Below are positions 26,923 through 59,616 of a stretch of 64,000 nt of DNA, one piece after another; within the stretch, counting starts at the first letter, position 1, and the number at the start of each line of letters is the position of its first letter. A model generated the notes under the pieces. That model was not told the origin of the DNA, ran no database searches, and saw only the letters and a list, made by a program, of their open reading frames with translations. The stretch spans positions 570,900 to 634,899 of the forward strand of contig CAVXJN010000001.1 of NCBI GenBank assembly GCA_963762165.1, given 5' to 3'. The position numbers and the translations under genes are program-made. This DNA is from an uncultured Gammaproteobacteria bacterium. Lineage in GTDB: Bacteria; Pseudomonadota; Gammaproteobacteria; JASBUN01.

Positions 26923-28275
26923 TCAAGAGCGCATATTGAATTTATCCAGTAACGTATACAGCGTCGGACGCGTGATCCCCAACAATTCGGCCGCACGCGA
27001 CAGATTCCCATCCGCGACGGACAATGCACGCGAGAGTGCGTGCCGTTCGGCCTGCTCCCGTACCTGGCGAAGGTTGAACGGCATGCTTTCGTCCTGCGCC
27101 TCAGCCAGTTCCAGGTCTTCTGCCGTAACCTGTGTCCCCTCGGCCATGATCACCGAACGCTTCACCCGATTTTCCATCTCTCGGACATTGCCCGGCCACT
27201 GATAGTGCTCGATCGCGGCCAATGCTTCTTTGCTGAAGCTGCGCACGGAGCGGCTGTTCTTGTCGGCATAGCGCTTCAGAAAGGTACTCGCCAACACTAC
27301 CGCGTCGCCTTGACGGTCCCGCAGCGGAGGCACAATGAGCTTGATTTCGCTGATTCGGTAGTAGAGATCTTCTCGGAACGTGCCTTCCTGAATCAATTGC
27401 GTCAGGTCACGGTGCGTGGCGCAAACCACCCGTACATCCACGGCGATCTCGGCTCTGCCGCCCACTCGCTCGATCACGCGCTCCTGTAAAAAGCGCAACA
27501 ATTTGGCCTGCAGCGCCAACGGCAGATCGCCCACTTCGTCGAGAAACAGCGTGCCGCCGTCAGCGTATTCGATTTTACCTTTGGTCTGCTTGGCCGCGCC
27601 GGTGAAAGCGCCCTTCTCATAACCGAAAAGCTCGCTTTCCAGAAGGTTTTCAGGGATCGCGGCGCAATTGATGGCGACGAAACTGCCCTGGGCGCGGCTG
27701 CTCAGATTATGGATCGCTCTCGCCACCAGTTCTTTGCCGGTACCGCTCTCCCCCAAGATGATCGTCGTCGCGTCCGTGGGCGCCACTTTTTCCACGGTCC
27801 GACATACTTTGAGCATTTCCGGGCTGGTGGCGATGATCCCCTCCAGAGGCGAATCGCCTTTTGCGCTGGCGAGGCGGCGGTTCTCGTCTTCCAATTCATA
27901 CACGCGGTAGGCGCGCTCGATGATCAACCCCAGGATTTCCGGTTCGATGGGTTTCTGGTAGAAGTCGTACGCTCCAAGGGCGATGGAACGCACGGCGTTT
28001 TCCCGATCTTCATTGCCCGTCACGACAATGATCTTGGTGTGCGGCGCAAGTCGCAAAATCTCCTCCAGCGTCGCAAGTCCCTCGCTGGCATTTGCCGGAT
28101 CCGGAGGCAGCCCGAGATCCAAAGTCACCACGGCCGGCTCGTGCCGGCGCAGTTCGTTAATAGCCGTCTCCTTGTCCCCCGCGATCAGCACATCGTAGTG
28201 CTCAAACGACCAGCGGAGCTGGCTTTGCAATCCGGGATCGTCCTCAATTACCAGTAGTGTTTTATTGGCTGTCAA
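26923..28275 (-). CDS. prsR: PEP-CTERM-box response regulator PrsR (NtrC-family sigma-54 activator)
   Basis: Receiver domain (DDPGL...TLDLGLPP), AAA+ sigma-54 interaction domain (GESGTGKE, GAFTGA), C-terminal Fis-type HTH; start overlaps prsK stop (ATGA). Confidence 0.85.
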   Translation of the reverse strand: MTANKTLLVIEDDPGLQSQLRWSFEHYDVLIAGDKETAINELRRHEPAVVTLDLGLPPDPANASEGLATLEEILRLAPHTKIIVVTGNEDRENAVRSIALGAYDFYQKPIEPEILGLIIERAYRVYELEDENRRLASAKGDSPLEGIIATSPEMLKVCRTVEKVAPTDATTIILGESGTGKELVARAIHNLSSRAQGSFVAINCAAIPENLLESELFGYEKGAFTGAAKQTKGKIEYADGGTLFLDEVGDLPLALQAKLLRFLQERVIERVGGRAEIAVDVRVVCATHRDLTQLIQEGTFREDLYYRISEIKLIVPPLRDRQGDAVVLASTFLKRYADKNSRSVRSFSKEALAAIEHYQWPGNVREMENRVKRSVIMAEGTQVTAEDLELAEAQDESMPFNLRQVREQAERHALSRALSVADGNLSRAAELLGITRPTLYTLLDKFNMRS

Positions 28276-30390
28276 TTCGCAGTCTCTGCAGCGCGTTGAA
28301 CGTCGTGTCCGGGCGCGTCTCGGTACAGCGGCAACCGGACCTGAAATTTGCTTCCGTTCCCGGGCTCGCTGGTGACCAGCAGGTCGCCGCCCTGCGACCA
28401 GATGAATTCTCTGCTTTCGTAGACGCCGATCCCCATTCCCGCGTTGCCCTTGGTGGTTTCAAATGGCCGGAATAAGCGTTCGCGAATAAACTTTTCGTCC
28501 ATGCCGCAGCCATCGTCCGTAACCTCGATGAGAACGTCATCGTGATCGACCCCGGCCTTTACCAGCACCCGGCCCTGCCGAGACGTGGCTTCCTGCGCGT
28601 TTTGGATCAGATGCGACAATACGTTGGTCAGTTTTTCGGCGTCTATCACCAGTAGCAATTGACGGTCTTCGGATTCCAGCGACGGTACAGGATCCTGACC
28701 GGCACAAGTCGATACGGCATCGCGCAAGATTGGCTGCAAATCGACGATCGATTTAGCAGCCTCTACTGTACCACCCTTGCGCAACTGTGCCAGCATCCTG
28801 TTCATCTTCGCAGTCGCGTTTTCGACCGTACTGATTGCGTCCGCCACGAAAGCGGGGTTATCGAGATGACGCTTCGCATTTTTTACTACCAACGACAGCT
28901 GCGCGCTGACATTCTTCAAATCGTGCACCACATATGATGAAAGTCGATTGAACGCTTCGAATTGACGGGCGTTCATCAATGCTTCGCTGGTCTCCACCAA
29001 CGCGATGTAACTGGCAATCTGCAGTCCGACCGTCTTCAGCAAGTCACGATCTTCCCAGTTAATATTACGCAGTGCGCGTGGCCTTCCCAATACCACGAAA
29101 GCGATAAGTGTCTCGTCGCGCAGCAACGGGACCACGAGCCAAGCCCGCGGCAACTCTTCGAGCCAATCCGGTAGCATCAGATCTTCATATAACTCTGGAT
29201 TCTCCCTGAATTCGTCCAGATCGATGACCCACTTCCGGGTGCGCAGAAAACGAATCACAGGCGCGTCTTCCTTGATCACTGCATGCGCCGTCTCGTTCAT
29301 GTTCCAATGCTCAGCCCCCGCATAGTGCCCGGCGTCGGTCTGAGTCCAGAGCATGCCGCCGGTACTTTCGACGATATCCGCCAGCGATCGAATCGCCCGT
29401 TGCCGCGGGTTCAGTTCGCCGTCTCCGGCCAGCAGACTTCCCGACAACTTCAACCATTCTTCTCGGTAATCGTACTTGTAATTGAAAAAATGCTTACTGA
29501 GAAATACCTTGAGTTTGGCTCGCATCTGCCCGGAAAACAGCAACACACCCAACAGCAGCAGCGCGAATGCCAAGAACGTCGCCTGTGCAGCGGTGCCCCA
29601 ACTACCTCCGAATTGGCGTATGTAATAGCCGGCCGCGGCCATGACCAGCAGGTAAAGTCCCTGCCCCGGCGAGCGTGACGGTATGGAACACCACCCGTCT
29701 GGAGATGAATACATCCAGGGACCAGGCCGGGTTGCGTGCCGCCGAAACCGCCAGCATCGGAACAACCAAAGCGTTGACGAACCCACGCGCTGTCCACAAA
29801 TCGTAATCGATCTGCTTGAACAGCAACGCATCCGAATACAGAAAAAAATCGTAGGCGAAAATGGCGCCTACGCCCAAAAATAGATACTTCACCGACCAGC
29901 GCCCCGACGGGCGGGTATTGCGAAATAATTGCTCCACCAAGGCCATGCCGATCAAAGCCAACAGCAAGTGGCCGGTCATTGCCGCCTGTGTCGGCGATGC
30001 CGAGTGTATTACCTTCGTGACCAGTTGCGGCACCAAGTCGATCAGCAGGACCACCGCCGCGGTGACTAGCGCGACAGGCTCAGCAAACGTCAACAACCCC
30101 GTATGCTCGCGCTCCGAGACCTTCAATGGTCGCAGCAGTCGAAACAGGAACACGTACCAGGTGATGTCGCGCAGGATTTCCAGCGTGTGATAGGCGATCG
30201 GAGAAACCGGTGCCTGAATCTGTGGCCCGAGTGCTGCCACCACCCCCCACACCGTACTGGTGGTCACGGCGGCGACCAGCGCCGCGCCTTCAAGGCGGCC
30301 CCGCCAACTCGTCAGCAGCAACAAAGCAAGCAGTAGAAATGCGCCCGCTGCGACGAGGTAGCTCACCAGGCCGATGTCAACCGCTTGCAT
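28272..30390 (-). CDS. prsK: PEP-CTERM system histidine kinase PrsK, with a +/-1 frameshift at a C4/G4 run near 29665
   Basis: Polytopic N-terminal domain (ORF 29602..30390) and HisKA/HATPase C-terminal part (ORF 28272..29831; HDLKN, DDGCGMD, GMGIGV) overlap in different frames; joined they give about 706 aa, the expected PrsK size. Confidence 0.7.
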
Positions 30391-30460
30391 TCCCGTCCCC
30401 CGCCGCCCGTTCAGCAGGTCGTTGCCGCTGGTGCCTCGACATGCGTCGGGCGGTCAACCC

Positions 30461-31858
30461 TTAGCGTGCGCCCTTCCCCCAGACGACCGCGTGGGCTGTC
30501 TGGAAGAGGATCATGAAATCGAATAGTAAACTGTAATTCTTGATGTAATAAAGGTCGTATTGCAGTTTTTCCATAGCGTCCCGCACGGAGGCACCATACG
30601 GGTAGGAAATCTGCGCCCAACCGGTGATGCCGGGGGCAACCTTGTGGCGCAGATCGTAAAATGGGATTTCCTGCTTCAATTGCTCGACGAACTCCGGCCG
30701 CTCGGGCCTTGGACCGACGAAACTCATATCTCCGCGCAGCACATTGAGCAGCTGGGGAAGCTCATCAATTCGGAATTTACGGATCAAACCGCCTACCCGG
30801 GTGACGCGGCTATCGCCCTTCTGCGCCCACTGCGCCTTGCCGTCCTGCTCGGCGTCCGCCCGCATGCTGCGGAACTTCAGCACTTCGAATGGTATGCCGA
30901 AACGCCCGACACGAATTTGGCGATACAGTACAGAGCCGGGGGATTCGATGCGAATCGCCAGCGCGGTGATCAACATGAAGGGCCACGCGAACAACAACAA
31001 GAACAGACTGGCGCCGATATCGAACACCCGCTTGCTGTTCTTGCGCAGTACCGCCTGCGAGAATCCGTCGGCGAAAATCAGGCTACTGGGATGCAGCGTA
31101 TCGAGGCGGATTTTGCCGCTTTGACGCTCGAAAAACGTCATGAGATCGACAACTTGCACGCCTTTCATTTTGCACTCAAGAATTTCGTCGACCGGAAAGC
31201 TTTTGCGGCGATCATCGATCGCCACCACGATTTCGTCGATCTGATATTCCTCCACCAATTGATCCAGGGGGGTGTCGGATTGCAGAACTTTCGCGGGATC
31301 GACCGAATCGCGTTCGCCGCGAATATGAATGTAGCCGATCAGCTTGAAGCCATGCCAATCGACGCGGCGCCGCAGGCTTTCCAGCAAGCGCGCTTTGCGG
31401 CCGGCGCCGACCACCAAAACGCGCGCTTTCAATCCCTCCATGTCGGCGAAATGATAGTGCAGTGCCCGCGCGCCAAGCACGAACCCCAGCGCAATCAACA
31501 GCGAAATGGCAAGTGCGCCGCGGCCGATGAACAGATCGGGCAGCACGTAGAACATCAGCGCGAGCATCACCACAGTAAGCATGAACGCGCCCAGCAGCCG
31601 CAGCACGATATGCCATAGACTGTCCACGCGCAGGTGGCGCCAATAGAGCCCCATGGTGGTCATGGAGAGGGCGACGATGGCGGCGAACAGAATTCCTTTC
31701 CAAAACAGCCCCTCGACGGAAGGATCGTCGACCGGCAGGCCACCGTCGTAAAACCGGACATACACGCCCAGGTAAACCGACGCCACCAGCAAAACCGCTT
31801 CGCCCAGTCCGAGGAATATCATGGACTCCGGGATGTAGTGTCGAAAAAGGCGAATCAT
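30461..31858 (-). CDS. Polyprenyl-phosphate glycosylphosphotransferase, EpsB-type (PEP-CTERM system-associated priming sugar transferase)
   Basis: 465 aa; N-terminal TM block plus C-terminal bacterial sugar transferase domain (...KFRSMR...DELPQL...RPERPEF...GITGWAQ). Confidence 0.8.
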   Translation of the reverse strand: MIRLFRHYIPESMIFLGLGEAVLLVASVYLGVYVRFYDGGLPVDDPSVEGLFWKGILFAAIVALSMTTMGLYWRHLRVDSLWHIVLRLLGAFMLTVVMLALMFYVLPDLFIGRGALAISLLIALGFVLGARALHYHFADMEGLKARVLVVGAGRKARLLESLRRRVDWHGFKLIGYIHIRGERDSVDPAKVLQSDTPLDQLVEEYQIDEIVVAIDDRRKSFPVDEILECKMKGVQVVDLMTFFERQSGKIRLDTLHPSSLIFADGFSQAVLRKNSKRVFDIGASLFLLLFAWPFMLITALAIRIESPGSVLYRQIRVGRFGIPFEVLKFRSMRADAEQDGKAQWAQKGDSRVTRVGGLIRKFRIDELPQLLNVLRGDMSFVGPRPERPEFVEQLKQEIPFYDLRHKVAPGITGWAQISYPYGASVRDAMEKLQYDLYYIKNYSLLFDFMILFQTAHAVVWGKGAR

Positions 31859-32056
31859 TGACTGCGGCGGTCCCTTATATTTGCTTGTGCAATCCGTCGA
31901 GCGCGGATCCGGTCACTGCGCTGGCCGCGCGAAAACGTCCGTGCTGCGGATGCCGCTCGGATGGGTAGCGCGAACCGAATGTATCTCTGCATAGCGGCCT
32001 GCGGTGAAGAAAGCTGAACCACTTCACACATCGACCACTTAATCTATCTCTGGTCC

Positions 32057-32070
32057 GAATTGATCAATTC
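32057..32070. promoter_or_regulatory. Perfect 14-bp palindrome GAATTGATCAATTC in the intergenic region upstream of the sugar transferase gene
   Basis: Self-complementary 14-mer followed by GATCGATC in an AT-rich stretch between the cNMP-binding gene and the epsB-like gene. Confidence 0.3.
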
Positions 32071-32119
32071 ACCCGATCGATCTTGAAAATATTTTTTTAT
32101 CAATCACTTACAACAACCC

Positions 32120-32593
32120 CTACAAATGCTCATCGAATCCGCGGGCCTTGAGCCCCCATGCCATCAGAGAGAATAGTTTACGATTGGTTTTTCGCAGCCG
32201 CACGACCAGTGCGCCCACCAACTCCTGCAATACCTCGTATCCCAGTTCCCGGTGCTGATCGAGAAATGCCAGTAAACGTTCGCCGTCGATCACTGCCAAT
32301 TCGCAATCCGTGACCGCCACCACGGACGCCGAGCGGGGCCCACGGTCGAACAAGGCCAACTCACCGAAAACCTCGCCGGATCCAAAATCGAAGAACCCCG
32401 GACGGATGCGTCGGGCCTCATCCAATGCGACGTCTCCAAGCACGCGCACCTTGCCGTCAAGCAACAGATAGACCTGCGACCCGGTAGCCCCTTCCTCGAC
32501 AATCGACTGATGGGCCAGAAACCGTTCCCGCGACCAATGCTGACCCTCCACGAAATCGGGATGCTGCAGCAACGCCCGCAGGGACTTGTTCAC
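32120..32593 (-). CDS. Stand-alone cyclic-nucleotide-binding (cNMP/CAP effector) domain protein
   Basis: 157 aa; cNMP-binding signature GEVFGELALFDRGPRSASVVA; no DNA-binding domain. Confidence 0.65.
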   Translation of the reverse strand: MNKSLRALLQHPDFVEGQHWSRERFLAHQSIVEEGATGSQVYLLLDGKVRVLGDVALDEARRIRPGFFDFGSGEVFGELALFDRGPRSASVVAVTDCELAVIDGERLLAFLDQHRELGYEVLQELVGALVVRLRKTNRKLFSLMAWGLKARGFDEHL

Positions 32594-32807
32594 ACCGCCA
32601 CCTTCATCTCCAACATCCTTACAAGTATAGAAACAAGCAGACCGGGTGTTCTAGTGGCGGCCCCGAATTGTCATGGAGTCGCGTCGGTCCACGACCACAA
32701 ATATGCCTCTTGACCTATTCAAAAACGCGTCGACTACGGGGATAATCCGGTGTTCATTTGTCCGCTCGGTGCGGACTGCATTCGAGCCAGACGGGAGCGA
32801 AAAAGGG

Positions 32808-34085
32808 ATGTTGAGCATCGACAATATCAAAATCGGCGTCATCGGGTTGGGCTACGTGGGCCTGCCGCTGGCGGTGGAACTCGGCAAACACTTCGATACT
32901 GTCGGGTTCGACATCAATAGCCGCCGAATCGACGAGCTCAAACAAGGGGTCGACCACACCCTTGAAGTGGAACCGGAGATCCTGGCGGCTGCGACAAAAT
33001 TGCAGTATACCGATCAAGCCGCGCAAATCGAGTCATGCAACTTCTATGTCGTCACCGTCCCTACTCCCATCGATCGTCACAAACGACCGGACCTCACGCC
33101 ACTTGAATCCGCCAGCCGCACCGTCGGCCGCGTCCTGAAAGCGGGAGACGTGGTCGTCTACGAGTCGACCGTATATCCCGGTGCCACCGAAGAAGTCTGC
33201 GTACCCATTCTCGAGCGTGAATCCGGACTCCGCTTCAACGTCGACTTTTTCGCCGGGTATAGCCCGGAACGCATCAATCCTGGAGACAAGGAACATCGAG
33301 TTTCGACCATCCTGAAGGTGACATCCGGCTCGACCCCCGAGGTGGCCGAATATGTGGACTCGGTGTACCGCCGTGTCATCACCGCCGGCACCCACAAAGC
33401 CAGTAGCATCCGGGTCGCGGAAGCGGCGAAAGTCATCGAAAATACCCAGCGCGACGTCAATATCGCCCTGATCAACGAACTCGCAATGCTGTTCAACCGG
33501 CTTGGGATCGATACGCTCGAGGTCCTGGAAGCGGCCGGCACCAAGTGGAACTTCCTGCCGTTTCGCCCGGGCCTGGTGGGTGGCCACTGTATCGGTGTCG
33601 ACCCCTATTATCTGACGCACAAAGCGCAGGAAATCGGCTATCACCCGGAGATGATTCTCGCCGGCCGGCAGATCAACGACGGCATGGGTTCCTATGTCGC
33701 CGAACAAGTCATCAAACTCATGACCCGCAAACGCATCCACGTGGTCGGCGCCCGAATCCTGATTATGGGATTGACGTTCAAGGAGAACTGTCCAGACCTG
33801 CGCAACACACGGGTGACCGATCTGATCGATGAGTTCAAGCATTATCACGCCGAAGTCGACGTGTACGACCCGTGGGTGGACGCGAAGGAAGCGCAGCACG
33901 AGTACGGCATCGAACCAATTTCAGAACCGCAACAAGGAGCCTACGACGCGGTCATTCTCGCGGTCGGCCATCGCCAATTCCAGGCCCTCGGCGTCGATGG
34001 CATGCACGCGCTCGGGAAATCGAAGCACGTGCTGTATGACGTCAAATACGTCCTTCCGGCGAAGGCGGTCGACGGTCGACTGTAG
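32808..34085 (+). CDS. Nucleotide-sugar dehydrogenase, TviB/WbpA-like (UDP-N-acetyl-D-glucosamine or -mannosamine 6-dehydrogenase family)
   Basis: N-terminal Rossmann [16 protein letters not shown]; catalytic region [12 protein letters not shown]; ATG at 32808 with upstream GGGAGCG; the ORF tool's 32673 start adds an unlikely extension. Confidence 0.75.
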
Positions 34086-37820: not shown

Positions 37821-37824
37821 GTCG

Positions 37825-42315: not shown

Positions 42316-42321
42316 TTTCAG

Positions 42322-42899: not shown

Positions 42900-43740
42900 C
42901 GGACGCAGGCAATCAGCCCCGCTCCGGGAACCCCGTCAATACCGCCCTTCGATCAGGCAATCTCGATCGCTTCCAGGACGCCGCAACGTTCGGGCGGCGT
43001 CGAAATGCCTCGCCCACGCCCACCATTTGATGAGCACCACCGGACCGCATGCCGAGCTGACGGCCGCCGCCGCGCATCTGGGCTTCACAGGGCACGCGTT
43101 CGCGCGTACGAGGCACCCACCCGTTCAGGGGTTGTAAGTTTCATGGGCGGCTAAAACATCAGTTCGACTTTGCTGCGCGAAAGATCGACCGCCAGCTTAG
43201 CTGGCGCTCTGGGTCGCATCGCGGTCGAAAATCACACTGCGCTGGCGACAAATCTCGTCCAGGGCGTGCGATGTCCTGAATAACGCCGATATCGTTGTTT
43301 GTCGTGCATGATAGAGGCGACTGACGGGTCGTCCCGCGGCGCTGCCTCGAATTGGCAGCGGGATCCTGCAGCCCGTTTGGCGTGCTCTCACAGCTGACGT
43401 CGTAAGCTTCGCAGCGCAACTGCCGGCAGGTATCAAGCCTTGCCTTGTGCTCGGTTTTGCAGCTGTGCTCGGTTTTGCAGCGGCCCCGGTACTGGCCTTT
43501 ACTTCTGATAGAAATGGAACGCCCTTGTCGCATTCCGCCCCCCGGACGTCCGGAGGATTTCCTTCGGGTGTCCGCGTTGATCAGCGGCGGCAGCTTCGTC
43601 GCGAGCCTGTGGCGCCGTCGTCTCCGCCTGCCAACCATTGGTATGCGACCGCGCTGCGTACTCGACGAAACCATCTTGTATGGTCAGGTGCGCGCACCGT
43701 TGTTCCGCGAATCGCGCGGCCACAGGGGTGCGTGTCAAAT
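42900..43740 (-). pseudogene. iscS: Cysteine desulfurase IscS remnant: multiple frameshifts, internal loss and 3' truncation
   Basis: Scattered over three minus-strand frames: ...ARSHTNGWQAE (IscS ASRSHRFGWQAE), KTEHKARLDTCRQL, NNDIGVIQDIA, DATQS, RVPCEAQMRGGGRQLGMRSG (IscS [20 protein letters not shown]); covers only about residues 1-290 and then abuts ndk. Confidence 0.7.
43446..43481. repeat. Perfect 18-bp tandem duplication (TGTGCTCGGTTTTGCAGC x2) inside the iscS remnant
   Basis: Direct visual identification; duplicates the KTEH-coding segment of iscS. Confidence 0.85.
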
Positions 43741-43803
43741 ATTCCAGACGAATCGGCGGTTTTCGGTCGCTTACGATGACTTCCGCGTTACTCGGATGCG
43801 CTC

Positions 43804-47460: not shown

Positions 47461-47794
47461 GATGACGCGTTCCGCCCTTTGCTTTATCGTGCCACCTTAC
47501 GCAGTATGCCGCTACGGCTGCGCCAGTTGCTGCGCAGCACCGATTGCCGTTTTCTGGATCGCCGGGATCACGGGACTGGTCTATGGCCTGTTTTTTGGCG
47601 GCCCGTTGCACCTCGACACAGTGAGCTGGAATACGGTGGGATTGGGCGCGCTGCTATGGGCCATCGCCAGCGTCTGGTCCCTGGTCACGGTACATACTGT
47701 CGACGACGATCGCTGTCAGCGCCGCAACGCACCGATCTGCAACAAGGTCAAACCCCGCACCGACGAGCAGGATCCCCTTCGAGGAATTGCGTAA
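47461..47794 (+). CDS. Hypothetical small Cys-rich membrane protein (very tentative)
   Basis: In-frame Met within ORF 46991..47794; two predicted TM helices (IAVFWIAGITGLVYGLFF, VGLGALLWAIASVWSLV); occupies the slot between suhB and secF; no family recognised. Confidence 0.25.
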
Positions 47795-47816
47795 AGCGCG
47801 TTAGCGGGCAAAGTGA

Positions 47817-48755
47817 TTAAGGACGACCGTCGACCTCGGCGCCTTCTTTTTTGACCTGCGCAAGATCGGCTTTGCTCAATCCGAGCGCCAACGCCAGCGC
47901 GCTGGCAACGTAGATCGAAGAATAGGTTCCGAACACGATTCCGACGATCAACGCCAAGGAAAATCCGTGGATGGCTTCTCCGCCTAGAAAATAAAGCGCA
48001 AACAACACCAGCAAGGTCGTACCTGAAGTCATCAACGTGCGCGACAGGGTTTGATTGATCGACGCGTTGATGATCGAAACCGGCGTACCCTTGCGCATTC
48101 TGCGGAAATTTTCCCGAATTCGATCGAACACCACGATGGTGTCGTTCAGCGAATAACCGATTACCGCCAAGACCGCCGCCATCACCGACAGGTCGAACGG
48201 AATCCAGAGCACAGAGAATACACCCAGGGTCATGATGGTATCGTGGGCCAGCGCGATCACCGAGCCCAGTGAAAGCCGCCACTCGAATCGCAGGGTGACG
48301 TAAATCAGAATACCGAACAGGGTCGTGAGCATTGCCAAGCCGCCCTGCTCGGTCAATTCCTGTCCGACTTGCGGACCGACGAATTCCACGCGACGCAAAG
48401 TAATTTCCGACTTGCTGCCGCTGCGCAGGCGGTCCATCACCCGGTTGCTCAGCTCGCTCTGCGTGACCCCCTCCTTGGGAGCAATGCGAATCAGCACATC
48501 TGTGGAAGTGCCGAAATACTGCACCACCGCGTCGCCGAAATCATCACCGCGCAGCGCTGTGCGCACGTCGTCGAGTTGGACGTCGCCGCTGTAGTTGACT
48601 TCGATCAGCGTGCCGCCGGTAAAGTCGATACCGAAGTTCAAACCGCGAACCGCGAGGGATACGATCGAACCAAGCACGAGTATCAGAGAAAGGATCATGG
48701 CGGCTTTGCGCACGCCCAGGAAATCGAACTCTGTTTGCTTCTTGAAAAATCGCAT
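47817..48755 (-). CDS. secF: Protein translocase subunit SecF
   Basis: 312 aa, six-TM SecF topology, directly downstream of secD. Confidence 0.9.
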   Translation of the reverse strand: MRFFKKQTEFDFLGVRKAAMILSLILVLGSIVSLAVRGLNFGIDFTGGTLIEVNYSGDVQLDDVRTALRGDDFGDAVVQYFGTSTDVLIRIAPKEGVTQSELSNRVMDRLRSGSKSEITLRRVEFVGPQVGQELTEQGGLAMLTTLFGILIYVTLRFEWRLSLGSVIALAHDTIMTLGVFSVLWIPFDLSVMAAVLAVIGYSLNDTIVVFDRIRENFRRMRKGTPVSIINASINQTLSRTLMTSGTTLLVLFALYFLGGEAIHGFSLALIVGIVFGTYSSIYVASALALALGLSKADLAQVKKEGAEVDGRP

Positions 48756-48773
48756 TTTGAAGCGTCCCGATAC

Positions 48774-50639
48774 TCAGATTGACAGCTTCTGCAGGCGCTT
48801 GCCGCCGTACAAAAGATTGATTACCGCGCGGGTGCCCATGATGGCGCTGAACATCGAAGTCAGAATACCGAGCGACAAGGTTACCGCGAAGCCTTTGATC
48901 GGGCCGGTGCCGATGCCGTACAGCACAACGGCAGCGATCAGCGTCGTGACATTGGCGTCGGCGATGGTCGAAAATGCCTTTTCATAACCGGCGTGAATAC
49001 TGGCCTGCGGCGTATTGCCGTTGCGCAATTCCTCGCGGATGCGCTCGAAGATCAGAACGTTGGCGTCCACGGCCATGCCCACAGTCAGGACTATGCCGGC
49101 AATGCCGGGCAGCGTCAGCGTCGCCTGCAAGAGCGACAACACCGCGACCAGGAGCACCATGTTGAAGCCCAGCGCCAAATCGGCCACCAGACCGAAAACG
49201 CGGTAATAGAAGGCCATGAACAACAACACCAAAGCAAAACCGACGACGACGGACTCAAAGCCCTGCTCGACATTGTCGCGCCCGAGGCTGGGCCCGATGG
49301 TGCGTTCTTCAACAATCTCAATTGGTGCAGCCAAAGCACCGGCACGCAGCAGCAAGGCCAGATTGTGTGCCTCATCGGGACTTTCCAGACCTTCGATCTG
49401 GAACCGTTGTCCGAGGCGATCGCGAATCACAGGCGCACTGATCACGTTGCGTTCGACCTTCTTCTCGCGCACCCGCTTGCCGTCTTTGAGCTTGGTTTCC
49501 ACCTTGGTCTCGATGTAGACCACGGCGAGCCGTTCGCCGATATGGTCCTTGGTGAAATCGCTGAACCGACGTCCGCCCTGGTTGTCGAGATTGATGGTGA
49601 CCACAGGCCCGCTGCGCTGATCGAAGGTCGAAGCCGCGTGGGTAATCGAATCGCCGGTCAGTATCACGCGACGACTGAGCAGGATCGGCGTGCCGTCACG
49701 CTCATGGAACAACTCCGTGCCCGGCGGTACATGGCCGCTGGCAGCGATACTGCCGACATTCTGGTTGCGTTCGTCCACCAGCCGAAATTCCAAGGTGGCG
49801 GTCGCACCGAGAATGTCTTTCGCCTGCGCAGGATCCTGCACACCCGGCAGTTCGACCACGATGCGCTTGTCACCCTGACGCTGGATCAGCGGCTCGGCGA
49901 CGCCAAGTTCGTTGACGCGATTGCGCAGCGTGGTGATGTTTTGTTCGAGCGCGAACTCCTGGGTCTCGCGCTTGTGCTTCTCGGTCAAGGTCGCAAACAA
50001 ATATGGATTGCCGTTCTGCTCCTTGTCGACGAGTATCAAACCGACGAATTGCCGTTGCAGCAGATCGCGCGCTTTCTGCCGTTCATCGCTATCGCGAAAG
50101 CGGATTTCCAGGGTCTCGCCGTCGCGGCGAACACCGAGATGGCGGATGGTTTTATCCCGCAACTGTGATTTGATCTCTCCCGCGTAGCGCTCCAGCTCTT
50201 TGTCCAGGGCCGCCTGCATGTCCACTTCCATCTGAAAGTGGATGCCGCCCTGCAGATCGAGGCCCAGGTACATCGGTTTGGCGTTGAGTAGTCGCAACCA
50301 TGCCGGGGTCGCCGGCGCCAGGTCCTGGGCGACGGTGAAATGGCCCTGCAATTGCGGCGAATCGGACAACAGCCGGGTCGCGCGCAGCTGCGAGTCGGTA
50401 TCGGCGAAACGCAGTTCCAGTTTGCCGTTTTCGAAACGCATGGAGCGGACATTGACGTTGGCGTCCTGAAGCAATTTGGCGACCGTGTCGCGCGCAGTCG
50501 CATCCAACTTTTCGTTGTGCACGGGACTTACGACGATCGCTGGATCCTTACCGAACAGATTGGGAAGCGCATACAGCACGCCTACCAACATGACGACCAA
50601 AATCAGGACGTACTTCCAAAGCGGATAGCGGTTGATCAT
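48774..50639 (-). CDS. secD: Protein translocase subunit SecD
   Basis: 621 aa, large periplasmic P1 domain, C-terminal TM bundle; yajC-secD-secF order. Confidence 0.9.
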   Translation of the reverse strand: MINRYPLWKYVLILVVMLVGVLYALPNLFGKDPAIVVSPVHNEKLDATARDTVAKLLQDANVNVRSMRFENGKLELRFADTDSQLRATRLLSDSPQLQGHFTVAQDLAPATPAWLRLLNAKPMYLGLDLQGGIHFQMEVDMQAALDKELERYAGEIKSQLRDKTIRHLGVRRDGETLEIRFRDSDERQKARDLLQRQFVGLILVDKEQNGNPYLFATLTEKHKRETQEFALEQNITTLRNRVNELGVAEPLIQRQGDKRIVVELPGVQDPAQAKDILGATATLEFRLVDERNQNVGSIAASGHVPPGTELFHERDGTPILLSRRVILTGDSITHAASTFDQRSGPVVTINLDNQGGRRFSDFTKDHIGERLAVVYIETKVETKLKDGKRVREKKVERNVISAPVIRDRLGQRFQIEGLESPDEAHNLALLLRAGALAAPIEIVEERTIGPSLGRDNVEQGFESVVVGFALVLLFMAFYYRVFGLVADLALGFNMVLLVAVLSLLQATLTLPGIAGIVLTVGMAVDANVLIFERIREELRNGNTPQASIHAGYEKAFSTIADANVTTLIAAVVLYGIGTGPIKGFAVTLSLGILTSMFSAIMGTRAVINLLYGGKRLQKLSI

Positions 50640-50658
50640 GCGGGAATTCTGCTCGGTG

Positions 50659-50994
50659 CTATTTCAGCGTGCCTTTGGGCATCAACGACCCTACGGCATT
50701 GCGCTGCACACGCACCCGCACATTGTCGGCAATCTCCAAAGTGACGAAATTCTCATCCAGTTCCTCGATCCGACCCAGCAGACCTCCGTTGGTGACCACT
50801 TCGTCGCCCGTGGAAAGGCTGGAAACCATATTGCGATGCTCTTTGGCGCGCTTGCTCTGAGGCCGGATGAGCAGGAAATAAAAGATGATGAAAATGATGA
50901 TCAGCGGTAGGAAACCCAGGATTCCGGGCTGTTGTGACGCCGCCGCACCGTTCTCAGCCAATGCGTCGGAAATGAAAAAACTAAGCAAGCTCAT
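50659..50994 (-). CDS. yajC: Preprotein translocase accessory subunit YajC
   Basis: Single TM (LPLIIIFIIFYFLLIRPQSKR) plus ...GDEVVTNGGLLGRI...; start at the internal Met (MSLLSFF); the longer ORF is a frame read-through. Confidence 0.85.
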   Translation of the reverse strand: MSLLSFFISDALAENGAAASQQPGILGFLPLIIIFIIFYFLLIRPQSKRAKEHRNMVSSLSTGDEVVTNGGLLGRIEELDENFVTLEIADNVRVRVQRNAVGSLMPKGTLK

Positions 50995-51221
50995 GACGTA
51001 TCCTTCAGATGTCCGAGTTCCAGGCCGGCAAATGTTAACACACTCATATTGCTGATAATAATGCCGCAAAGCCCGGCACAAACGGGATGTGTGACGCTGG
51101 CATCTTCCCGCCAATCATGGTGTAGAAGACAGGCTTGGCCGGCAACCGCCACAGTGGCTGTGGCCAGTCGGCGCCGTATTATTGCACAGAACCGGGGCCG
51201 CGCGCATAGGCCGGATGCGGT

Positions 51222-53381
<2,160 letters not shown>

Positions 53382-53524
53382 GGCGATGCGGATGGTAGCA
53401 GCTTCAAGCGCAAGGGACGAGTTGTGGCGGCGGACGCAGTTGGTGGTTGCCCTCTGCCAGGAAAACCTTATACTTTGGCGCCTGGTCGACGGAGCCGAGT
53501 TCAAACCGGTACCGCGGGCCGTAT

Positions 53525-53611
53525 GCCGGGGTGGCGGAATTGGTAGACGCGGCGGACTCAAAATCCGCTGGGGGTGACCCCTTGAGAGTTCGAGTCTCTC
53601 CCTCGGCACCA
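53525..53611 (+). tRNA. tRNA-Leu (anticodon CAA), type II with long variable arm, encoded CCA
   Basis: 7-bp acceptor stem GCCGGGG/CTCGGC, D-loop GGAATTGGTAGA, anticodon loop CT-CAA-AA, long variable arm, T-loop GGTTCGAGTCT motif, terminal CCA. Confidence 0.85.
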
Positions 53612-53735
53612 CCTTTGCACGGCAGCCTCGCGCCCAAGTCCGGGTAGCGGCCTGTCCGTGAAGCAACCACACTAATCAGAACCACGGCCGCGGCTCGAAT
53701 TTTCCCGCGCATCACACCGAACCCAGAAGCGAACC

Positions 53736-56294
53736 ATGTCGGGCACCTGTTATTCACTGGAAGTCCAGTCCAATATTCCTGACCGATTGACGCGCCTCAC
53801 TGAGCTCGCCAACGACCTGCTCTACAGTTGGGACCGGCAGGTACGCGGATTGTTCTTCCGCCTCGATCCGATCCTGTGGGAACGGTGTGGCCACAATCCC
53901 AAAGTTTTCTTGCGCCGCGTATCCCAGGAACGTCTTGAAGAGGCTGCGCAAGATCGTATCTTCCTGGAGGACTACCACCGCGCTCTGTCGGTATACGACA
54001 CCTATCACCAGGACCATATGCCAAGCACTGTGCACGAGCATTTGGACCCTGAAAAAGACCTGGTGGCTTACTTCTGCGCCGAATTCGGCTTCCACGAAAG
54101 CCTGCCCATTTATTCCGGCGGCCTTGGCATTCTCGCCGGCGATCACTGCAAGGCGGCGAGCGACCTGTATCTGCCGTTCGTTGCCGTGGGACTGCTGTAT
54201 CGCCAGGGATACTTCACCCAGACCATCGACGGTCACGGCAACCAGATTGCCCATTACACGCCGACCAATTTCGATGATCTGGTGATTTCTCCTGCGCGAG
54301 ATACAAACGGTGAAGAGATCCATGTCGCGGTTTCGATCGATAGCCGCACGGTAACTTTGAAAGTCTGGCAGGCCAAGGCCGGCCATATCACCTTGTATCT
54401 TCTCGACAGCGATCTGCCCCTGAACAGCGAGCGCGATCGCTCCATCACCTACCAATTATACGGCGGCGACAGCACCACCCGCATTCAGCAGGAAATCGTG
54501 CTTGGTATCGGCGGCGTGCGCGCCTTGCGCGCCCTCGGCCTGACCCCGAACGCCTGGCACATCAACGAAGGCCACGCCGCGTTCCTGATCCTGGAACGTT
54601 GTCGCGAGTTGGTCAGATCAGGCATGGATTTCGACAGCGCCCTGGAACTGGTGGCCGCCGGAACCGTGTTCACCACGCATACGCCGGTGGCTGCGGGTCA
54701 CGACATCTTTGAATACGATCTAGTCACCAACAATTTTCGCGAGTTCATCAAGGAACTCGGTATCGGTGAAGAACGGTTTCTGCGCCTGGGTAATGGCGCC
54801 GATCACCACGCCGGTTTCAACATGACGACGCTGGCGTTGCGCGGCTCCCGCTTCCACAACGGGGTCAGCCGCATTCACGGTGGCGTCGCCTCGCGTATGG
54901 AAAGCTACGTCTGGCCGCAGATTCCGCCTCAGGAAAATCCAATCGGTTACGTAACCAACGGCATCCACGTCCCGACATTCCTCGCCCGCGAGTGGTCCAG
55001 CATGTTCGACATGCGTTTCGGCGGCGAATGGCGCAACGAACTTCTGAACGAGGAATACTGGGAACGCATCGAAGATATTCCCGCCCACAGCTTCTGGAGT
55101 TTGCGCCAGTCGTTGAAGTCCGAACTGATGAAAGACGTACGTCAACGGGTGACTTGGCAGCATCGTCGCAACGCTTCGAGCGATGCGCAGATCGAGCGCA
55201 TCAGCAAATTGCTCGACCCCGATCTCACGGATGTATTGATCCTCGGTTTCGCGCGCCGTTTTGCCACCTACAAGCGGGCAACGCTGCTGTTCTCGGATCC
55301 CGAGCGCCTAGCGCGTATGCTCGGCAATCCCAAACGGCCCGTGCTGTTGATATTCGCCGGCAAGGCGCATCCCAACGACATGCCCGGCCAGCACCTGATC
55401 CAGGTCATTCACGAGTTCTCACGCAAACCCGAATTCGAAGGCAAGATTATTTTGCTGGAAGGCTTCGATCTGGCCCTGGCGCGCAAGCTTGTTACCGGCG
55501 TCGACGTCTGGCTCAACAATCCGGAATATCCGCTCGAAGCAAGCGGCACTTCAGGACAAAAGGCCGGCATCAACGGGGTGATCAATCTCAGCGTGTTGGA
55601 CGGATGGTGGGATGAAGGCTACAACGGCGCAAACGGCTGGGCCATCACGCCCCACGGTCCGCAGCACGATGCCGCGTTCCGGAACCGGGAAGAGTCACGC
55701 GAACTTCTGGACATCCTCGAGCACCAGGTGATTCCCTTGTATTTCCGGCGCGAAGGTCACGGCTATTCGGAACCCTGGGTGAAAATGTCGAAGCAATCGA
55801 TGAAAACGTTGCTGCCGCGCTTCAATGCCCAACGCATGGCCATGGACTATGTTCGCGGCTACTACGGTTCGGCGGTGCGCCAAACCAGGCGCCTGAGCTC
55901 CGACAACGCCGCTCCCGCCCGTGAGCTAGCGGAGTGGAAGCAGAAAATCCGCGCCCATTGGGACAAAGTGCAACTCCAACGTACTGACGAAACCCGCCCG
56001 GCAATCCGCGCCGGAGAGTTGCTTCCCATCCGCGTGCAGGCGCTGCTCAACGAACTCAGCCCCAATGACGTGCGCATGGAATGCCTGGTAGGGACCGAGA
56101 CCACGGACGGTGAATTTGTGCTGCACGATACCTTTCAGCTGACAGCGGGCGCAGCCGACAGCAGCGGGCAGACCGAGTTCGCGTTGGATCTACGCCCGCC
56201 TCTGCCCGGTTTGCAGCGCTACAAGTTGCGCATGTACCCGCACCATCCGTTGCTCAGTCATGCCCTGGAAACCGGCTGCATGCTGTGGCTTTGA
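53736..56294 (+). CDS. glgP: Alpha-glucan (glycogen/maltodextrin) phosphorylase, GT35, about 850-aa type
   Basis: 852 aa; GT35 features (EGHAAFLILERCRE, PLP-lysine region ...FAGKAHPND...); embedded in a glycogen gene cluster. Confidence 0.8.
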   Translation: MSGTCYSLEVQSNIPDRLTRLTELANDLLYSWDRQVRGLFFRLDPILWERCGHNPKVFLRRVSQERLEEAAQDRIFLEDYHRALSVYDTYHQDHMPSTVHEHLDPEKDLVAYFCAEFGFHESLPIYSGGLGILAGDHCKAASDLYLPFVAVGLLYRQGYFTQTIDGHGNQIAHYTPTNFDDLVISPARDTNGEEIHVAVSIDSRTVTLKVWQAKAGHITLYLLDSDLPLNSERDRSITYQLYGGDSTTRIQQEIVLGIGGVRALRALGLTPNAWHINEGHAAFLILERCRELVRSGMDFDSALELVAAGTVFTTHTPVAAGHDIFEYDLVTNNFREFIKELGIGEERFLRLGNGADHHAGFNMTTLALRGSRFHNGVSRIHGGVASRMESYVWPQIPPQENPIGYVTNGIHVPTFLAREWSSMFDMRFGGEWRNELLNEEYWERIEDIPAHSFWSLRQSLKSELMKDVRQRVTWQHRRNASSDAQIERISKLLDPDLTDVLILGFARRFATYKRATLLFSDPERLARMLGNPKRPVLLIFAGKAHPNDMPGQHLIQVIHEFSRKPEFEGKIILLEGFDLALARKLVTGVDVWLNNPEYPLEASGTSGQKAGINGVINLSVLDGWWDEGYNGANGWAITPHGPQHDAAFRNREESRELLDILEHQVIPLYFRREGHGYSEPWVKMSKQSMKTLLPRFNAQRMAMDYVRGYYGSAVRQTRRLSSDNAAPARELAEWKQKIRAHWDKVQLQRTDETRPAIRAGELLPIRVQALLNELSPNDVRMECLVGTETTDGEFVLHDTFQLTAGAADSSGQTEFALDLRPPLPGLQRYKLRMYPHHPLLSHALETGCMLWL

Positions 56295-56301
56295 GTCGGA
56301 C

Positions 56302-57811
56302 TCAGGCTGCGGGTTCTTCCAGACGACCGTAGGCCGCCAGCATGTCGCGCAACCGCTGCGCCAGTTGTTCGTCGACCATGCTCCACTCAAAACGCCATCC
56401 CCAGTTGCCTTCGGTGACTCCGGGCACATTCATTCGATGGCGATCGTCTAGCGCCAGAAGATCCTGCATCGGCAACACGCACATCTCGGAGACCGAAGCG
56501 AGCGCTGCGCGAATCAGCGGCCACGGCTGGGGCTCCTGCGGGTAGCCCAGGTATTCGCGCACCCGTTCCTGCTGGTCGTCGCTGAGCGAGTCGAACCAGC
56601 CCACGGTGGTATTATTGTCGTGGGTGCCGGTGTAGACGACATAATCGCGTTCGTGGTTATGGGGCAGATACGGATTTTCCGGGCCGCCATCGAACGCGAA
56701 CTGCAGAATCTTCATTCCGGGCAGGCCGAAGCGATGGCGTAAGGCATCGACCTCCGGCGTAATCAGGCCCAGATCCTCCGCCACCAGCGGTAACGGATCG
56801 AAGCGGCTGCGAAAGTGTTCGAACAACTCCTCGCCGGGGGCCTCCACCCAGCGGCCGTCCACAGCGGTTTCCGCCTCTGCAGGAATTTCCCAGAAAGCCT
56901 GGAATCCGCGGAAATGATCGATGCGTACCAGATCGAACAAATCGAATTGATGTCCGACTCGACGCAGCCACCAATCGTAGCCGCTTTCACGCATGTGGTC
57001 CCAGCGATAGAGCGGATTGCCCCAGCGCTGGCCGGTCGCTGAAAAATAATCCGGCGGCACCCCCGCCACGGTCAGGGCGCGGCCCTGGTCGTCCAAGGTG
57101 AAATACTCGCGCCGTGCCCAAACCTCCGCGCTATCGTGGGCGACGAATATGGGCAGGTCGCCGAACAGCAATACGCCTCGTTGATTGGCGTAGGACTTGA
57201 GCGCCCGCCATTGACGATCGAACACGAACTGCTCGAAGCACACGCGCTCGCGTTCCTCGGCCAGTTCCGCTTTGGCATTCTCGAGCGCTTCCGGCACCCG
57301 ATCGCGTACCGGCGCAGGCCAATCAAGCCAGGAACGGCCGCTGTGCTTGCGGCGCAGTGCCTGATACAGACAATAGTCGTCCAGCCAGTATTGCTGGCGC
57401 TCACGAAACGACCGGTAGTCCGCCTTCTGTGCCTGGTCGGCATGTTCCGCGAAACCTTGCACGGGCGCGCTGCAACAACTGCTCCCGCCAGGCGGCGGCG
57501 TCGGCACCCGGTTCACCCAGGTCACCGAGCCAGCCTTCAGCCTGCAACTGTTCGGCGCTCAATCAGGCGGGACTGCCGGCGAATACCGACAAACACGGCA
57601 TAAGGTGAACCGTCGGAATGGGTCGGACCAAGGGGCAACATCTGCCAGACGGTCGCACCCGTGGAGACCAAAAAGATCGACGAAATTGCGACCTTCCTCG
57701 CCTAGCGCCCCACCGGACGCATCGCACGGCAGCGACGTCGGATGCAACAGGACGCCGGCGCGGCGCCTGCTGAATGGCGACTCTTCGGCGATTGCTTTCC
57801 GGTCGCTCATG
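56302..57811 (-). pseudogene. malQ: 4-alpha-glucanotransferase MalQ (GH77), with several frame disruptions in the N-terminal 120 codons
   Basis: Intact C-terminal 407 aa (ORF 56302..57525) with GH77 motifs; N-terminus MSDRKAIAEESPFSRRRAGVLLHPTSLP... (ORF 57559..57849); the intervening conserved segments (GSPY..., FAGSPA-stop-LSAEQLQAEGWL) appear in all three frames, including an in-frame TGA. Confidence 0.65.
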
Positions 57812-57895
57812 ACCGCTCCAATACCCGGCCGCGCAGAACCGGCAGCCAAATGTGGGTACCGGCGGCCGCGGCGAGCGGCACTTTCCCGAGCGCGT

Positions 57896-59616
57896 TCATG
57901 TTACGAAACCACAGGAAGCGCAGGACGCATTACACCGCCGACCGCGGGTTGGCCGCCGCCGTGGGTGAACGCATGCTGCAGATAGTCGCGGCGGCTCCCG
58001 CTGCAGTATCTGGTACAGGCGGGTCAGATGCTCGCGGTACAGCCAGTCGAAATCGCGTACCGACTCGGCAGGATTGTCGTCGCCAAACCACCAGAACCAA
58101 TCCGAGCCTTCGCAGATCGCGAGCTGACGTGCGGCCTGAGTCGCGGATTTCAGCGGACAAGCCGCCGCGGGCCGTCGCTGCGTCGAATGCACGCTTGGCG
58201 TCGGCAAGCATGTCCCAGCCGCGGTTCTTGTCGGCGTGGCCGACCCAGGTGGTCAAGGTGCCATACACCCAGCTGCCGGCCACGACGTGGTCGAGAGTCC
58301 GGTTTTTGGCCGCGACCTGCAGGCAATCGCCGAAGGTGGACAATTTCAGTTGCCCGTGCTGGGCCAGGCGTCGGTAGAGTTCGTCGAGAAAGTGATACCC
58401 GTTTTCCGGAAAGTGCTCCCAGGCGTTCTCACCATCGAGAATGATTGCCACGACGGCATCGTCGCGGTCCTTGCAGGCGAGTCTGATGTTTTCCAGGTGA
58501 TGCACCAGATTGGCGACGGCATCTTCCGCATGCCAGTTCGAATAACTGAAACCGATCAGATCGGACAAGCCGTCGTCGCGAAAAAAACACGCCAGTGGAT
58601 GGCCACCGAACCGGTAGACGCGGTGCTCGCAGTCATGGGACGCCCCGGCTTTGTGGCCAGCCGTGCTGAGACTGTTGCGCAACACCTGGCCGCCGGAGGC
58701 GGTCCATTGAAACCCGGCTTCGTCCAGCAAGTGCAGGGTGGCATCACTTACCGCACCCTCCCCCGGCCAGCAGCCGCGCGGACGGAATCCGAAATGGGCT
58801 CTCGAAAACGTCCATGCCTTCTTTGATATGCCAGCGGGCGCGGTCCGCGCCGCCCGGGTACAATTTGCTCGCAGGCAGCGCCAGGCCCGGCACCGCTTCC
58901 TGCGCGCTGGCCGCGTCCAACAACAGCGGTACGATGGGATGAGCATAGGGTGTGACCGACAACTCCACGCGTCCGGTTTCCGCAAGCCGGCGATAACGGG
59001 GGACGATGCCGCTCACCAGTTCGGAAATAATCGCAACCAGCGTGCGGCGGTCGCGGCTGTCGTAGTCGGCGGACTTGTCCATGAGTTCCCGCACGCGCGT
59101 GTCGCTGCGGCGTACCGTTTCGCCAATCCAGGCCAAGTGATACCAAGTGAGCAGATCGAACAGGAACTGGTCGTTGACATAGCACGCGAGTTCGGGGTCT
59201 TTGTCGATTTCACCTGCCAGCTGTACCAGGCGCCGGAACGGTTCGAACCGATCGATCATGCGCGACTGGTTAGCGCGCATGCAGGCGCGTATCAGGCTCA
59301 GGCGCCGATTCGGGTCAGCGGGCAATTTCTGTGCTGCCAGTCCCCGCAGCAATGGGTCGGGCAGCGGTTGCCCATGGCTTACGAATAGCTGCAAGGCGGT
59401 GCTGTAATGATCCAACTGTTCCAGTAACGTCGGTGTAAAATTCACCACCGCCCTGGCGCCGTCGACACGCTCCAAGTGGGCGGCCATATCGACGTAGTCC
59501 TTGATGGCGTGCAGATAGGTCCAAGGAAGTCGGTACCGGCCGCTGATCGGGTCGAGGTATTGCGGTTGGTGCATGTGCCAGCACAGCACCACCCGCAACG
59601 GAACATCACCCCGCAT
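57896..59616 (-). CDS. Glycoside hydrolase family 57 (alpha-amylase/4-alpha-glucanotransferase-type) enzyme, in three frames
   Basis: N-terminus [14 protein letters not shown] (ORF 58744..59616), middle ...[22 protein letters not shown]... (ORF 57930..58985), C-terminal [13 protein letters not shown] (ORF 57896..58207); implies frameshifts near 58800 and 58200. Confidence 0.6.

Follow-up and report, generated by a model that had tools for sequence, protein, structure and literature searches.

Clustered frame disruptions in a gammaproteobacterial metagenome contig most likely reflect consensus errors at strain-polymorphic sites rather than genome decay

The window analyzed here, a stretch of 64,000 nucleotides from an uncultured gammaproteobacterium, carries a series of genes with disrupted reading frames, among them prsK, rodZ, tgt, malQ, and a GH57 glycoside hydrolase gene, together with an iscS remnant and insertion sequences. 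Open reading frames (ORFs), profile matches, and sister alignments confirmed that the disruptions are present in the sequence and lie close to where a sequence-only reading had put them, in a number exceeding its list. The sister alignments covered 31.4 kb of coding sequence from two sister genomes, which originate from the same Microflora Danica metagenome assembly and share ∼89% DNA identity with the window.

Three genes, all on the minus strand, are broken by a single base. The 705-aa PrsK histidine kinase is split into gene calls of 262 aa and 456 aa by an extra C at 29657 (GGGA[C]TTTACC in the sister alignment), with positions 2 to 239 of the TIGR02916 model falling in ORF 29605-30453 and positions 238 to 679 in ORF 28275-29867. 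When this base is removed, the 705-aa protein aligns with the L001 protein gap-free at 95.6% identity. The break had been attributed to a C4/G4 run near 29665; the break itself holds, but the extra base lies beside the G/C runs and not within them. In rodZ, reported as broken at about 40000 to 40063, the two halves of the gene lie in ORFs 39682-40458 and 39455-40306, and one base is missing at 40003 to 40004 (CCAGACGTCCGC in the sisters, CCAGGC-TCCGC in the window), which is the sole private deletion of the window. Adding one base yields a full-length RodZ of 331 aa, free of gaps and stops, with 85.8% identity to L001. The tgt break, expected at about 52037, is an extra base at 52033 (GGTGC[G]CATGCG versus GGCGC-CATGCG in the sisters, reading as GC[G/C]) that places model positions 1 to 103 and 97 to 361 in two frames; without it, Tgt is 370 aa long and aligns with L001 gap-free at 93.0% identity.

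Two further minus-strand genes each contain three +1 insertions. Those in malQ, at 57462, 57598, and 57675, fall within 213 nt together with an in-frame TGA (57565-57563), in line with its description as a multilesion gene. Repaired MalQ is 501 aa long and matches L002 gap-free at 92.6% identity with one stop left. The insertions cannot account for this stop, which is a point against reading the lesions as artifacts. Private substitutions show a slight excess in the malQ patch (0.084 versus 0.056) that we judged uninformative. The GH57 gene had been credited with two breaks; it is indeed frame-broken, but by three insertions, at 57985, 58140, and 58801. Removal of the three bases restores a 580-aa ORF with 87.6% identity to L002 and neither gaps nor stops, and the two fragments of the Pfam PF03065 match (positions 2 to 122 and 130 to 280) become one, spanning positions 2 to 280.

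Insertions also occur inside a frame that remains open. The 2.9-kb prsT gene (23975-26848, minus strand) had been taken as intact, yet protein alignment shows about 40 residues scrambled in two stretches. A three-way alignment with both sisters revealed six private +1 insertions within 263 nt of its N-terminal patch (26442..26705), arranged as two compensating triplets (26705/26678/26642 and 26492/26457/26442). With the six bases deleted, the N terminus again resembles that of the sisters, and the patch has no local excess of private substitutions (0.050 versus 0.111). By comparison with the sisters, glgP and secD are clean and are intact, as previously stated. The earlier fallback advice to treat single-break genes as intact was, in our judgment, right, and it should be extended to malQ, GH57, and the prsT N terminus.

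The first 24 kb of the window hold additional broken genes, all of which had been recognized in the sequence-only reading. The second PrsT-like TPR gene, prsT2 (21132..23881, minus strand), consists of four frame segments: TIGR02917 positions 27 to 113, 119 to 553, 600 to 735, and 725 to 898 are found in four ORFs that keep the order of the model, and tblastn frames agree. On the plus strand (17868..20394), a GT1 glycosyltransferase gene shifts through frames 0, 1, 0, and 2, and a sulfotransferase gene has an in-frame stop at 20098-20100 with a Pfam gap at positions 154 to 176. An IS110-family transposase gene is divided by a single break into two minus-strand ORFs (4694-5560 and 4188-4817), with model positions 1 to 147 and 177 to 342 in two frames; it adjoins an IS3-family remnant on the plus strand (2944-4086; whole locus, 2944..5560). 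These two elements make up the IS content of the 64-kb window. The breaks in prsT2, GT1, the sulfotransferase, and the IS110 transposase include apparent −1 shifts, and these genes have no close relative for comparison.

A different kind of decay is seen between iscR and ndk, where a degraded remnant is all that is left of iscS (43000..43774, minus strand; a weak NCBIfam match of 31 bits), which had been counted among the multilesion genes. Only residues 16 to 275 of the intact IscS of L004 can be aligned with it, at 30 to 37% identity and in at least two frames, and iscU, iscA, hscB, hscA, and fdx are absent from the locus. The sisters retain even less of iscS. An independently assembled contig (Logan L081) crosses the remnant without indels and has zero mismatches within it. 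iscS is thus a genuine, old pseudogene, and its loss is older than the split of the three species. The isc loss had been taken to fit early reductive evolution; the loss is real, but since it is common to both sister species it is uninformative on any recent reduction. The remnant also serves as a control within the window, as its low identity, several frames, and large deletions are unlike the other breaks.

In the 31.4 kb compared, the window has 16 private indels whose length is not a multiple of three, versus 0 and 2 in the sisters. The 16 comprise 15 +1 insertions and a single deletion (P = 5 × 10−4 for bias). They are clustered and nonuniform, as had been noticed before, with 19 pairs of indels no more than 300 nt apart versus 2.2 expected (P ≤ 5 × 10−6). 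The insertion clusters occur in threes. Selection for a net +3 per cluster was rejected as the cause of this pattern, as malQ and GH57 still meet stops within the shifted stretches.

The sequence-only reading had named long-read homopolymer or indel error as the alternative to decay. The evidence sides with indel error, though of a type other than homopolymer miscounting. At least 10 of the 15 insertions place the base between two unlike bases, i.e., outside homopolymers. Inspection of every site showed a run being extended at 47777 only, or arguably also at 57462, 57598, and 26705, and the longest run affected by any insertion goes from G3 to G4 (at 47777). Homopolymer length error was accordingly dropped as the main cause. 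Seven of 13 insertions adjoin an alignment column at which the two sisters differ. The context CGCGA[C] accounts for four of the 15 insertions and a fifth follows GGGA, but only 4 of the 35 CGCGAC sites on the insertion strand are affected. A methylation or context motif was also rejected, with GATC found near just two insertion sites and CGCGA[C] at four. Programmed frameshifting was set aside: the sites have no slippery motif in common, and in the sisters each of these proteins is encoded in a single frame.

The broken genes show no relaxed selection. For malQ, tgt, and rodZ, the nonsynonymous-to-synonymous (N/S) counts are 76/163 on the window branch and 103/206 in the sisters (P = 0.71). 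Over 12 intact genes, covering only 36 kb, the counts are 147/577 in the window and 165/691 in the sisters (P = 0.61), and private substitution densities are 0.048 to 0.064 in broken genes and 0.051 to 0.057 in intact ones. Since the window branch and the sisters have matching N/S values, in intact and broken genes alike, there is no sign of a small population or of the host-restricted lifestyle that had been proposed. Clustering had further been used to argue that the multilesion genes are genuine pseudogenes, but the breaks sit in short patches of genes that are otherwise clean and still under purifying selection. Decay would be expected to leave deletion-biased lesions of mixed kinds scattered along genes; mixed decay was seen in iscS only. 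The broken genes are all dispensable and the clearly essential ones (hisS, der, bamB, secD, and secF) all intact, a pattern that real inactivation would also give.

Independent data came from five Logan contigs of run ERR11594398, which derive from the same population and cover 16.4 kb of the window at 99.7 to 99.96% identity. They differ from the window by 15 mismatches, and six of the seven that were classified are synonymous third-position changes. Strain polymorphism thus exists in the population. The only indel in the 16.4 kb is at 47777 (47777..47778), an additional base close to the 3′ end of a hypothetical ORF (46991-47791, plus strand) that was detected by sister alignment and with Logan contig L167. 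The sequence at this site is CGAA-GGGATCC in the sisters, CGA-GGGGATCC in L167, and CGAAGGGGATCC in the window. In other words, the A of the sisters is a G in the Logan contig, with no change in length, while the window contains the A followed directly by the G. The idea that each +1 represents both alleles of a single-nucleotide polymorphism (SNP) had been recorded before the comparison with L167 was made. Of the 16 break sites, 47777 is the one that Logan contigs reach, and at this single testable site the insertion is absent from the independent assembly. The site borders two short homopolymers and is hence atypical of the others. Logan contigs end at 52069, 57046, and 30080, short of all other break sites. 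No Logan matches were found for pilW, prsR, or the N-terminal fragment of tgt, and a search of JGI metagenomes for same-species contigs with repaired Tgt as the query returned nothing above 80% amino acid identity.

We consider it likely that long-read metagenome assembly introduced most of the frame disruptions as consensus errors at strain-polymorphic sites and that they are not mutations of the organism. The contig would collapse at least two coexisting strains of one species, and at a strain SNP the consensus may sometimes write both alleles side by side, adding one base and shifting the frame; patches with several nearby strain differences would then receive several insertions. We infer that the other 15 sites arose as at 47777. 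The sisters trace to ENA assembly ERZ25039483 (MFD01721 MAGs), and their catalogue, MFD-LR, is Nanopore only, assembled with Flye and polished with one round of Medaka without short reads (PMC12313526). Judging from the sisters and from the 968-kb length of its contig, the window probably also stems from Nanopore reads alone, assembled with metaFlye and polished once with Medaka. Flye is known to collapse close strains (PMC8302730), and polishers misbehave in heterozygous regions, where they can introduce frameshifts (PMC8092372). The four C insertions after CGCGA and the grouping in threes are patterns outside the predictions of this model. A codon-position test of the doubled SNPs was not counted as evidence: the codon positions of the doubled bases do not exceed the level estimated for chance (about two thirds), and 9 of 15 doublets are synonymous pairs where about half would be expected by estimate.

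Genomes in early reductive evolution in recently host-restricted bacteria, such as Sodalis glossinidius and Mycobacterium leprae, contain many pseudogenes and expanded IS elements. The window resembles them in its high apparent pseudogene density, its IS elements, and its loss of the isc operon. Genuine recent pseudogenization of this kind, inactivating prsK, rodZ, tgt, malQ, GH57, and others, would fit with the dispensability of all genes hit next to intact hisS, der, bamB, secD, and secF, with the presence of IS elements and a real iscS pseudogene, and with the true in-frame stop in malQ. We nevertheless regard it as very unlikely. The broken genes have neither a substitution excess nor an N/S rise, the 12 intact genes evolve as in the sisters, and single-base lesions lie in otherwise perfect genes, with GH57 flawless once three bases are removed and six insertions crowded into 263 nt of an otherwise conserved prsT. 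Bacterial indel mutation is deletion biased, the opposite of the 15:1 insertion bias seen here. The isc loss is ancestral to the three species, including the sisters from the same metagenome assembly, and the sole testable insertion is missing from the independent assembly. Genome decay is therefore unsupported, and nothing indicates a host-restricted lifestyle.

The recurrence of C after CGCGA, together with the insertion after GGGA, could instead point to low-coverage Nanopore noise or context-specific basecalling error (e.g., at a methylated motif) unrelated to strain polymorphism. Nanopore-only MAGs below ∼40× coverage keep indels (PMC9262707), and the catalogue authors tie error signs to lower-coverage MAGs (PMC12313526). 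Uniform noise, however, fails to explain the clustering, the low fraction of CGCGAC sites affected, or the 16.4 kb of Logan comparison without any further indel; the extra base at 47777 is the alternative allele, and insertions tend to adjoin variable columns, so that we find this explanation unlikely. It is very improbable that the frameshifts are real but polymorphic among strains, the assembly having happened to follow a strain with inactivated alleles. Strain diversity is demonstrated, and Logan contigs ending before all other break sites would be expected if both alleles occur, but 15 independent +1 insertions would be needed in one strain without accompanying decay, 47777 would require an extra coincident substitution, and triple insertions within 50 to 64 nt are implausible as separate mutations. 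We also give little credence to a very recent, strongly insertion-biased burst of real frameshifts, e.g., in a mutator lineage of a free-living soil or sediment gammaproteobacterium. Such a burst would have inactivated malQ and GH57 (glycogen trimming), tgt, rodZ, and prsK, which encodes the sensor of the PEP-CTERM system, and compensated triple insertions would have rewritten short protein segments.

Consensus error at strain-polymorphic sites has partial counterparts in the literature. In the spurious pseudogenes of Nanopore-only assemblies (PMC9262707), single-base consensus indels likewise split genes and vanish in accurate data, and the MAG lineage of the window has sister records without short-read polishing. 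The classic Nanopore error, however, is a miscount of long homopolymers and usually a deletion, whereas here 15 of 16 indels are insertions, at least 10 of them nonhomopolymeric, in short patches. Frameshift errors in long-read assemblies as treated by proovframe (10.1101/2021.08.23.457338) appear to be a comparable case. Hapo-G (PMC8092372) and Strainberry (PMC8302730) address collapsed haplotypes with local errors, including frameshifts, where haplotypes differ, but these descriptions are general and concern mostly diploids or mock communities. We found no published description of a doubled-SNP +1 signature.

In the organism itself, prsK, rodZ, tgt, malQ, GH57, and prsT are thus very probably intact, and the genuine biology among the lesions of the window is limited to the old iscS remnant and two IS elements. 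A MAG lineage with Nanopore-only sister records can hold about one frameshifting error per 2 to 3 kb in one contig; by contrast, sister contigs from one such Nanopore-only assembly are nearly clean. Errors can also hide within intact-looking ORFs, as do the ∼40 scrambled residues of prsT. A possible screen would look for private +1 insertions that adjoin variable sites and are grouped in patches. Such contigs would mislead any count of pseudogenes or inference of lifestyle, as well as the protein databases that draw on them.

Family scans bore out the three-block layout that the sequence-only reading had proposed: a PEP-CTERM/XrtA exopolysaccharide locus (prsT2, prsT, prsR, prsK, and an EpsB_2-type glycosyltransferase gene), a conserved housekeeping block (der, bamB, yfgM, hisS, rodZ, pilW, rlmN, ndk, iscR, cysE, trmJ, suhB, secF, secD, yajC, tgt, and queA), and the glycogen genes glgP, malQ, GH57, glgC, and glgB. 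The reported gene splits are likewise real: in prsK, rodZ, tgt, malQ, GH57, prsT2, and the IS110 transposase gene, a single family model extends over consecutive open reading frames (ORFs) that differ in frame. The GT1 gene passes through frames 0, 1, 0, and 2, and the sulfotransferase gene has an in-frame stop. The breaks in the strain-variable region at 1 to 24 kb (prsT2, GT1, sulfotransferase, and IS110) are confirmed as observations only. Because the NCBI/ENA record of the 967,912-bp contig calls each fragment of tgt, rodZ, and prsK as a gene of its own, the breaks belong to the public sequence. At positions 2944 to 5560, an IS3-family transposase remnant (model positions 87 to 283 of 369) directly adjoins the IS110-family transposase, which has one frame break and the NCBIfam label RNA-guided transposase. 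The polysaccharide locus has two FeeM-like N-acyl amino acid synthase (GNAT) genes in tandem at its edge (990 to 2775), and GATC occurs 425 times in the whole 64-kb window, compared with an estimated ∼234 expected from base composition.

For comparison, a SecD-based scan of species-representative genomes yielded two sister loci (L001 and L002) with ∼89 to 90% DNA identity to the window and the same gene order. They come from the MAGs MFD01721.bin.1.74 and MFD01721.bin.1.106, with both contigs in ENA metagenome assembly ERZ25039483, and two further loci from the same contigs widened the comparison to 24.8 to 60.6 kb of the window. Both relatives have intact prsK (705 aa), rodZ, tgt (370 aa), malQ (a 531-codon ORF), and GH57 (580 aa). 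The sister assemblies are also not wholly clean, as L002 has two private −1 indels (window-equivalent 47055 and 47355) that shorten a hypothetical ORF beside secF to 203 aa. In L001 alone, glgP and queA are separated by an insertion of 2.5 kb (4505 to 7018), which overlaps a 421-codon ORF (4388 to 5650, minus strand) and may be a mobile element.

In a three-way alignment of 31.4 kb of coding sequence, 16 indels of a length not divisible by three were private to the window, versus 0 and 2 in the relatives. Fifteen are +1 insertions, located in prsT (26442, 26457, 26492, 26642, 26678, and 26705), prsK (29657), a hypothetical ORF (47777), tgt (52033), malQ (57462, 57598, and 57675), and GH57 (57985, 58140, and 58801, one more than the two breaks noted earlier); the sole deletion (−1) is in rodZ (40004). 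The breaks had been described as clustered rather than uniform, and they are: 19 pairs lie ≤300 nt apart versus 2.2 expected (P ≤ 5 × 10−6), and private indels strike 7 of 28 genes versus ∼12 expected. In at least 10 insertions the added base sits between two unlike bases, so these are not homopolymer miscounts; even the prsK break, previously placed at a C4/G4 run, lies outside the G/C runs that it adjoins. Nor is prsT an intact long gene, as had been thought: its six insertions fall into two triplets, each of which restores the frame, so that the ORF stays open and ∼40 residues become out-of-frame sequence. Groups of three also occur once each in malQ and GH57, and every group nets +3. Selection cannot account for this grouping, because stops are still encountered in malQ and GH57; chance may be the cause (a post hoc estimate of roughly 1 in 27). 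In 4 of the 15 insertions (26442, 26492, 57985, and 58140), a C follows CGCGA on the gene strand, where CGCGAC has 35 sites in the compared 36 kb, and a fifth (29657) follows GGGA. The CGCGA context may reflect a context-specific basecalling or polishing bias.

The sequence-only reading had leaned toward genome decay for the multi-lesion genes; the condition of the broken genes argues against decay. Deleting the extra base restores PrsK and Tgt to full length without gaps (95.6% and 93.0% identical to a relative, respectively), and adding the missing one does the same for RodZ (85.8%). Likewise, repaired GH57 aligns without gaps (87.6% identity over 580 aa), and the PrsT N terminus again matches the relatives. 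Repaired MalQ is 92.6% identical to a relative and retains one in-frame TGA (57563 to 57565; TTA or TTG in the relatives), for which an erroneous substitution, an allele of one strain, and a genuine nonsense mutation are all conceivable. Nonsynonymous/synonymous counts in malQ, tgt, and rodZ are not raised on the window branch (76/163 versus 103/206 in the relatives; P = 0.71), with 147/577 versus 165/691 in 12 intact genes. At the usual indel-to-substitution ratio, three neutral indels per 1.5-kb gene would be accompanied by tens of extra, mainly nonsynonymous substitutions; no such excess was seen in the broken genes, whose density of private substitutions equals that of the intact genes. 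The 15:1 insertion bias (P = 5 × 10−4) also speaks against decay, since bacterial mutation is deletion biased.

Independent evidence comes from five short contigs of the Logan assembly of run ERR11594398, fetched by exact-protein look-ups, which match the window at 30080 to 32899, 41808 to 46468, 47526 to 49047, 49097 to 51561, and 52069 to 57046 with 99.7 to 99.96% identity (15 mismatches over 16.4 kb). Seven of the mismatches were classified: six alter a third codon position synonymously, and one gives the allele of a relative. These mismatches are real strain SNPs, and the population is therefore heterogeneous. The only indel in the 16.4 kb is at 47777, the sole break site reached. The aligned sequences there are CGAA-GGGATCC in the relatives, CGA-GGGGATCC in the Logan contig, and CGAAGGGGATCC in the window. 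The Logan contig thus agrees with the relatives in length and carries a G, and in the window both alleles, A and G, stand in tandem, showing an artefactual origin directly. The general idea that each +1 can be read as two SNP alleles preceded this comparison. Two contigs (L167 and L164) are just 49 nt apart (49048 to 49096), and another (L165) stops 36 nt short of the tgt insertion (52033 to 52069); such ends may mark sites with both alleles in the run. No patch of insertions is spanned by a Logan contig, which fits local polymorphism but is not proof of it.

The remaining insertions can all be read as two adjacent alleles, e.g., GC[G/C] in tgt, GA[T/C] in malQ, and TG[C/G] and GA[C/A] in prsT; in both prsT examples, each of the two bases occurs as the allele of one relative, and 7 of 13 insertions adjoin a column that varies between the relatives. 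Judged from these patterns, the remaining breaks would share the origin seen at 47777, and patches of insertions would form where strains differ at several close positions. We therefore consider consensus artefacts at strain-polymorphic sites the most likely explanation for the single-base breaks, and hold this with good confidence. The triplet clusters, the four CGCGA insertions, and the malQ TGA are left unexplained by it. That the frameshifts are real, being very recent or strain specific, seems improbable even with both variants taken together. The Microflora Danica long-read catalogue used Nanopore reads only, with metaFlye, one Medaka round, and no short-read polishing; according to its authors, MAGs of lower coverage show signs of Nanopore error (PMC12313526). 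With R10.4 data, near-finished assemblies require ∼40× coverage (PMC9262707), Flye collapses close strains (PMC8302730), and polishers misbehave in heterozygous regions, adding frameshifts among other faults (PMC8092372).

The iscS remnant (43000 to 43774, minus strand) is the window's internal positive control for a real pseudogene: only residues 16 to 275 of IscS are left, at 30 to 37% identity and in at least two frames, and the remaining operon is gone. In all three sister species, iscR is intact and the stretch from iscR to ndk lacks iscU, iscA, hscB, hscA, and fdx. The region concerned is 42778 to 43806 in the window, 16859 to 17299 in L001, and 16830 to 17398 in L002; the relatives have only a few hundred bases between the two genes and keep even less of iscS, which is worn down to a different length in each species. 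In the next relative (L004), whose IscR is 84% identical, iscR is followed by an IscS-like ORF that is intact. The isc loss, earlier taken as a sign of reductive evolution, is thus genuine but not recent: it is common to both relatives and therefore older than the split of the three species.
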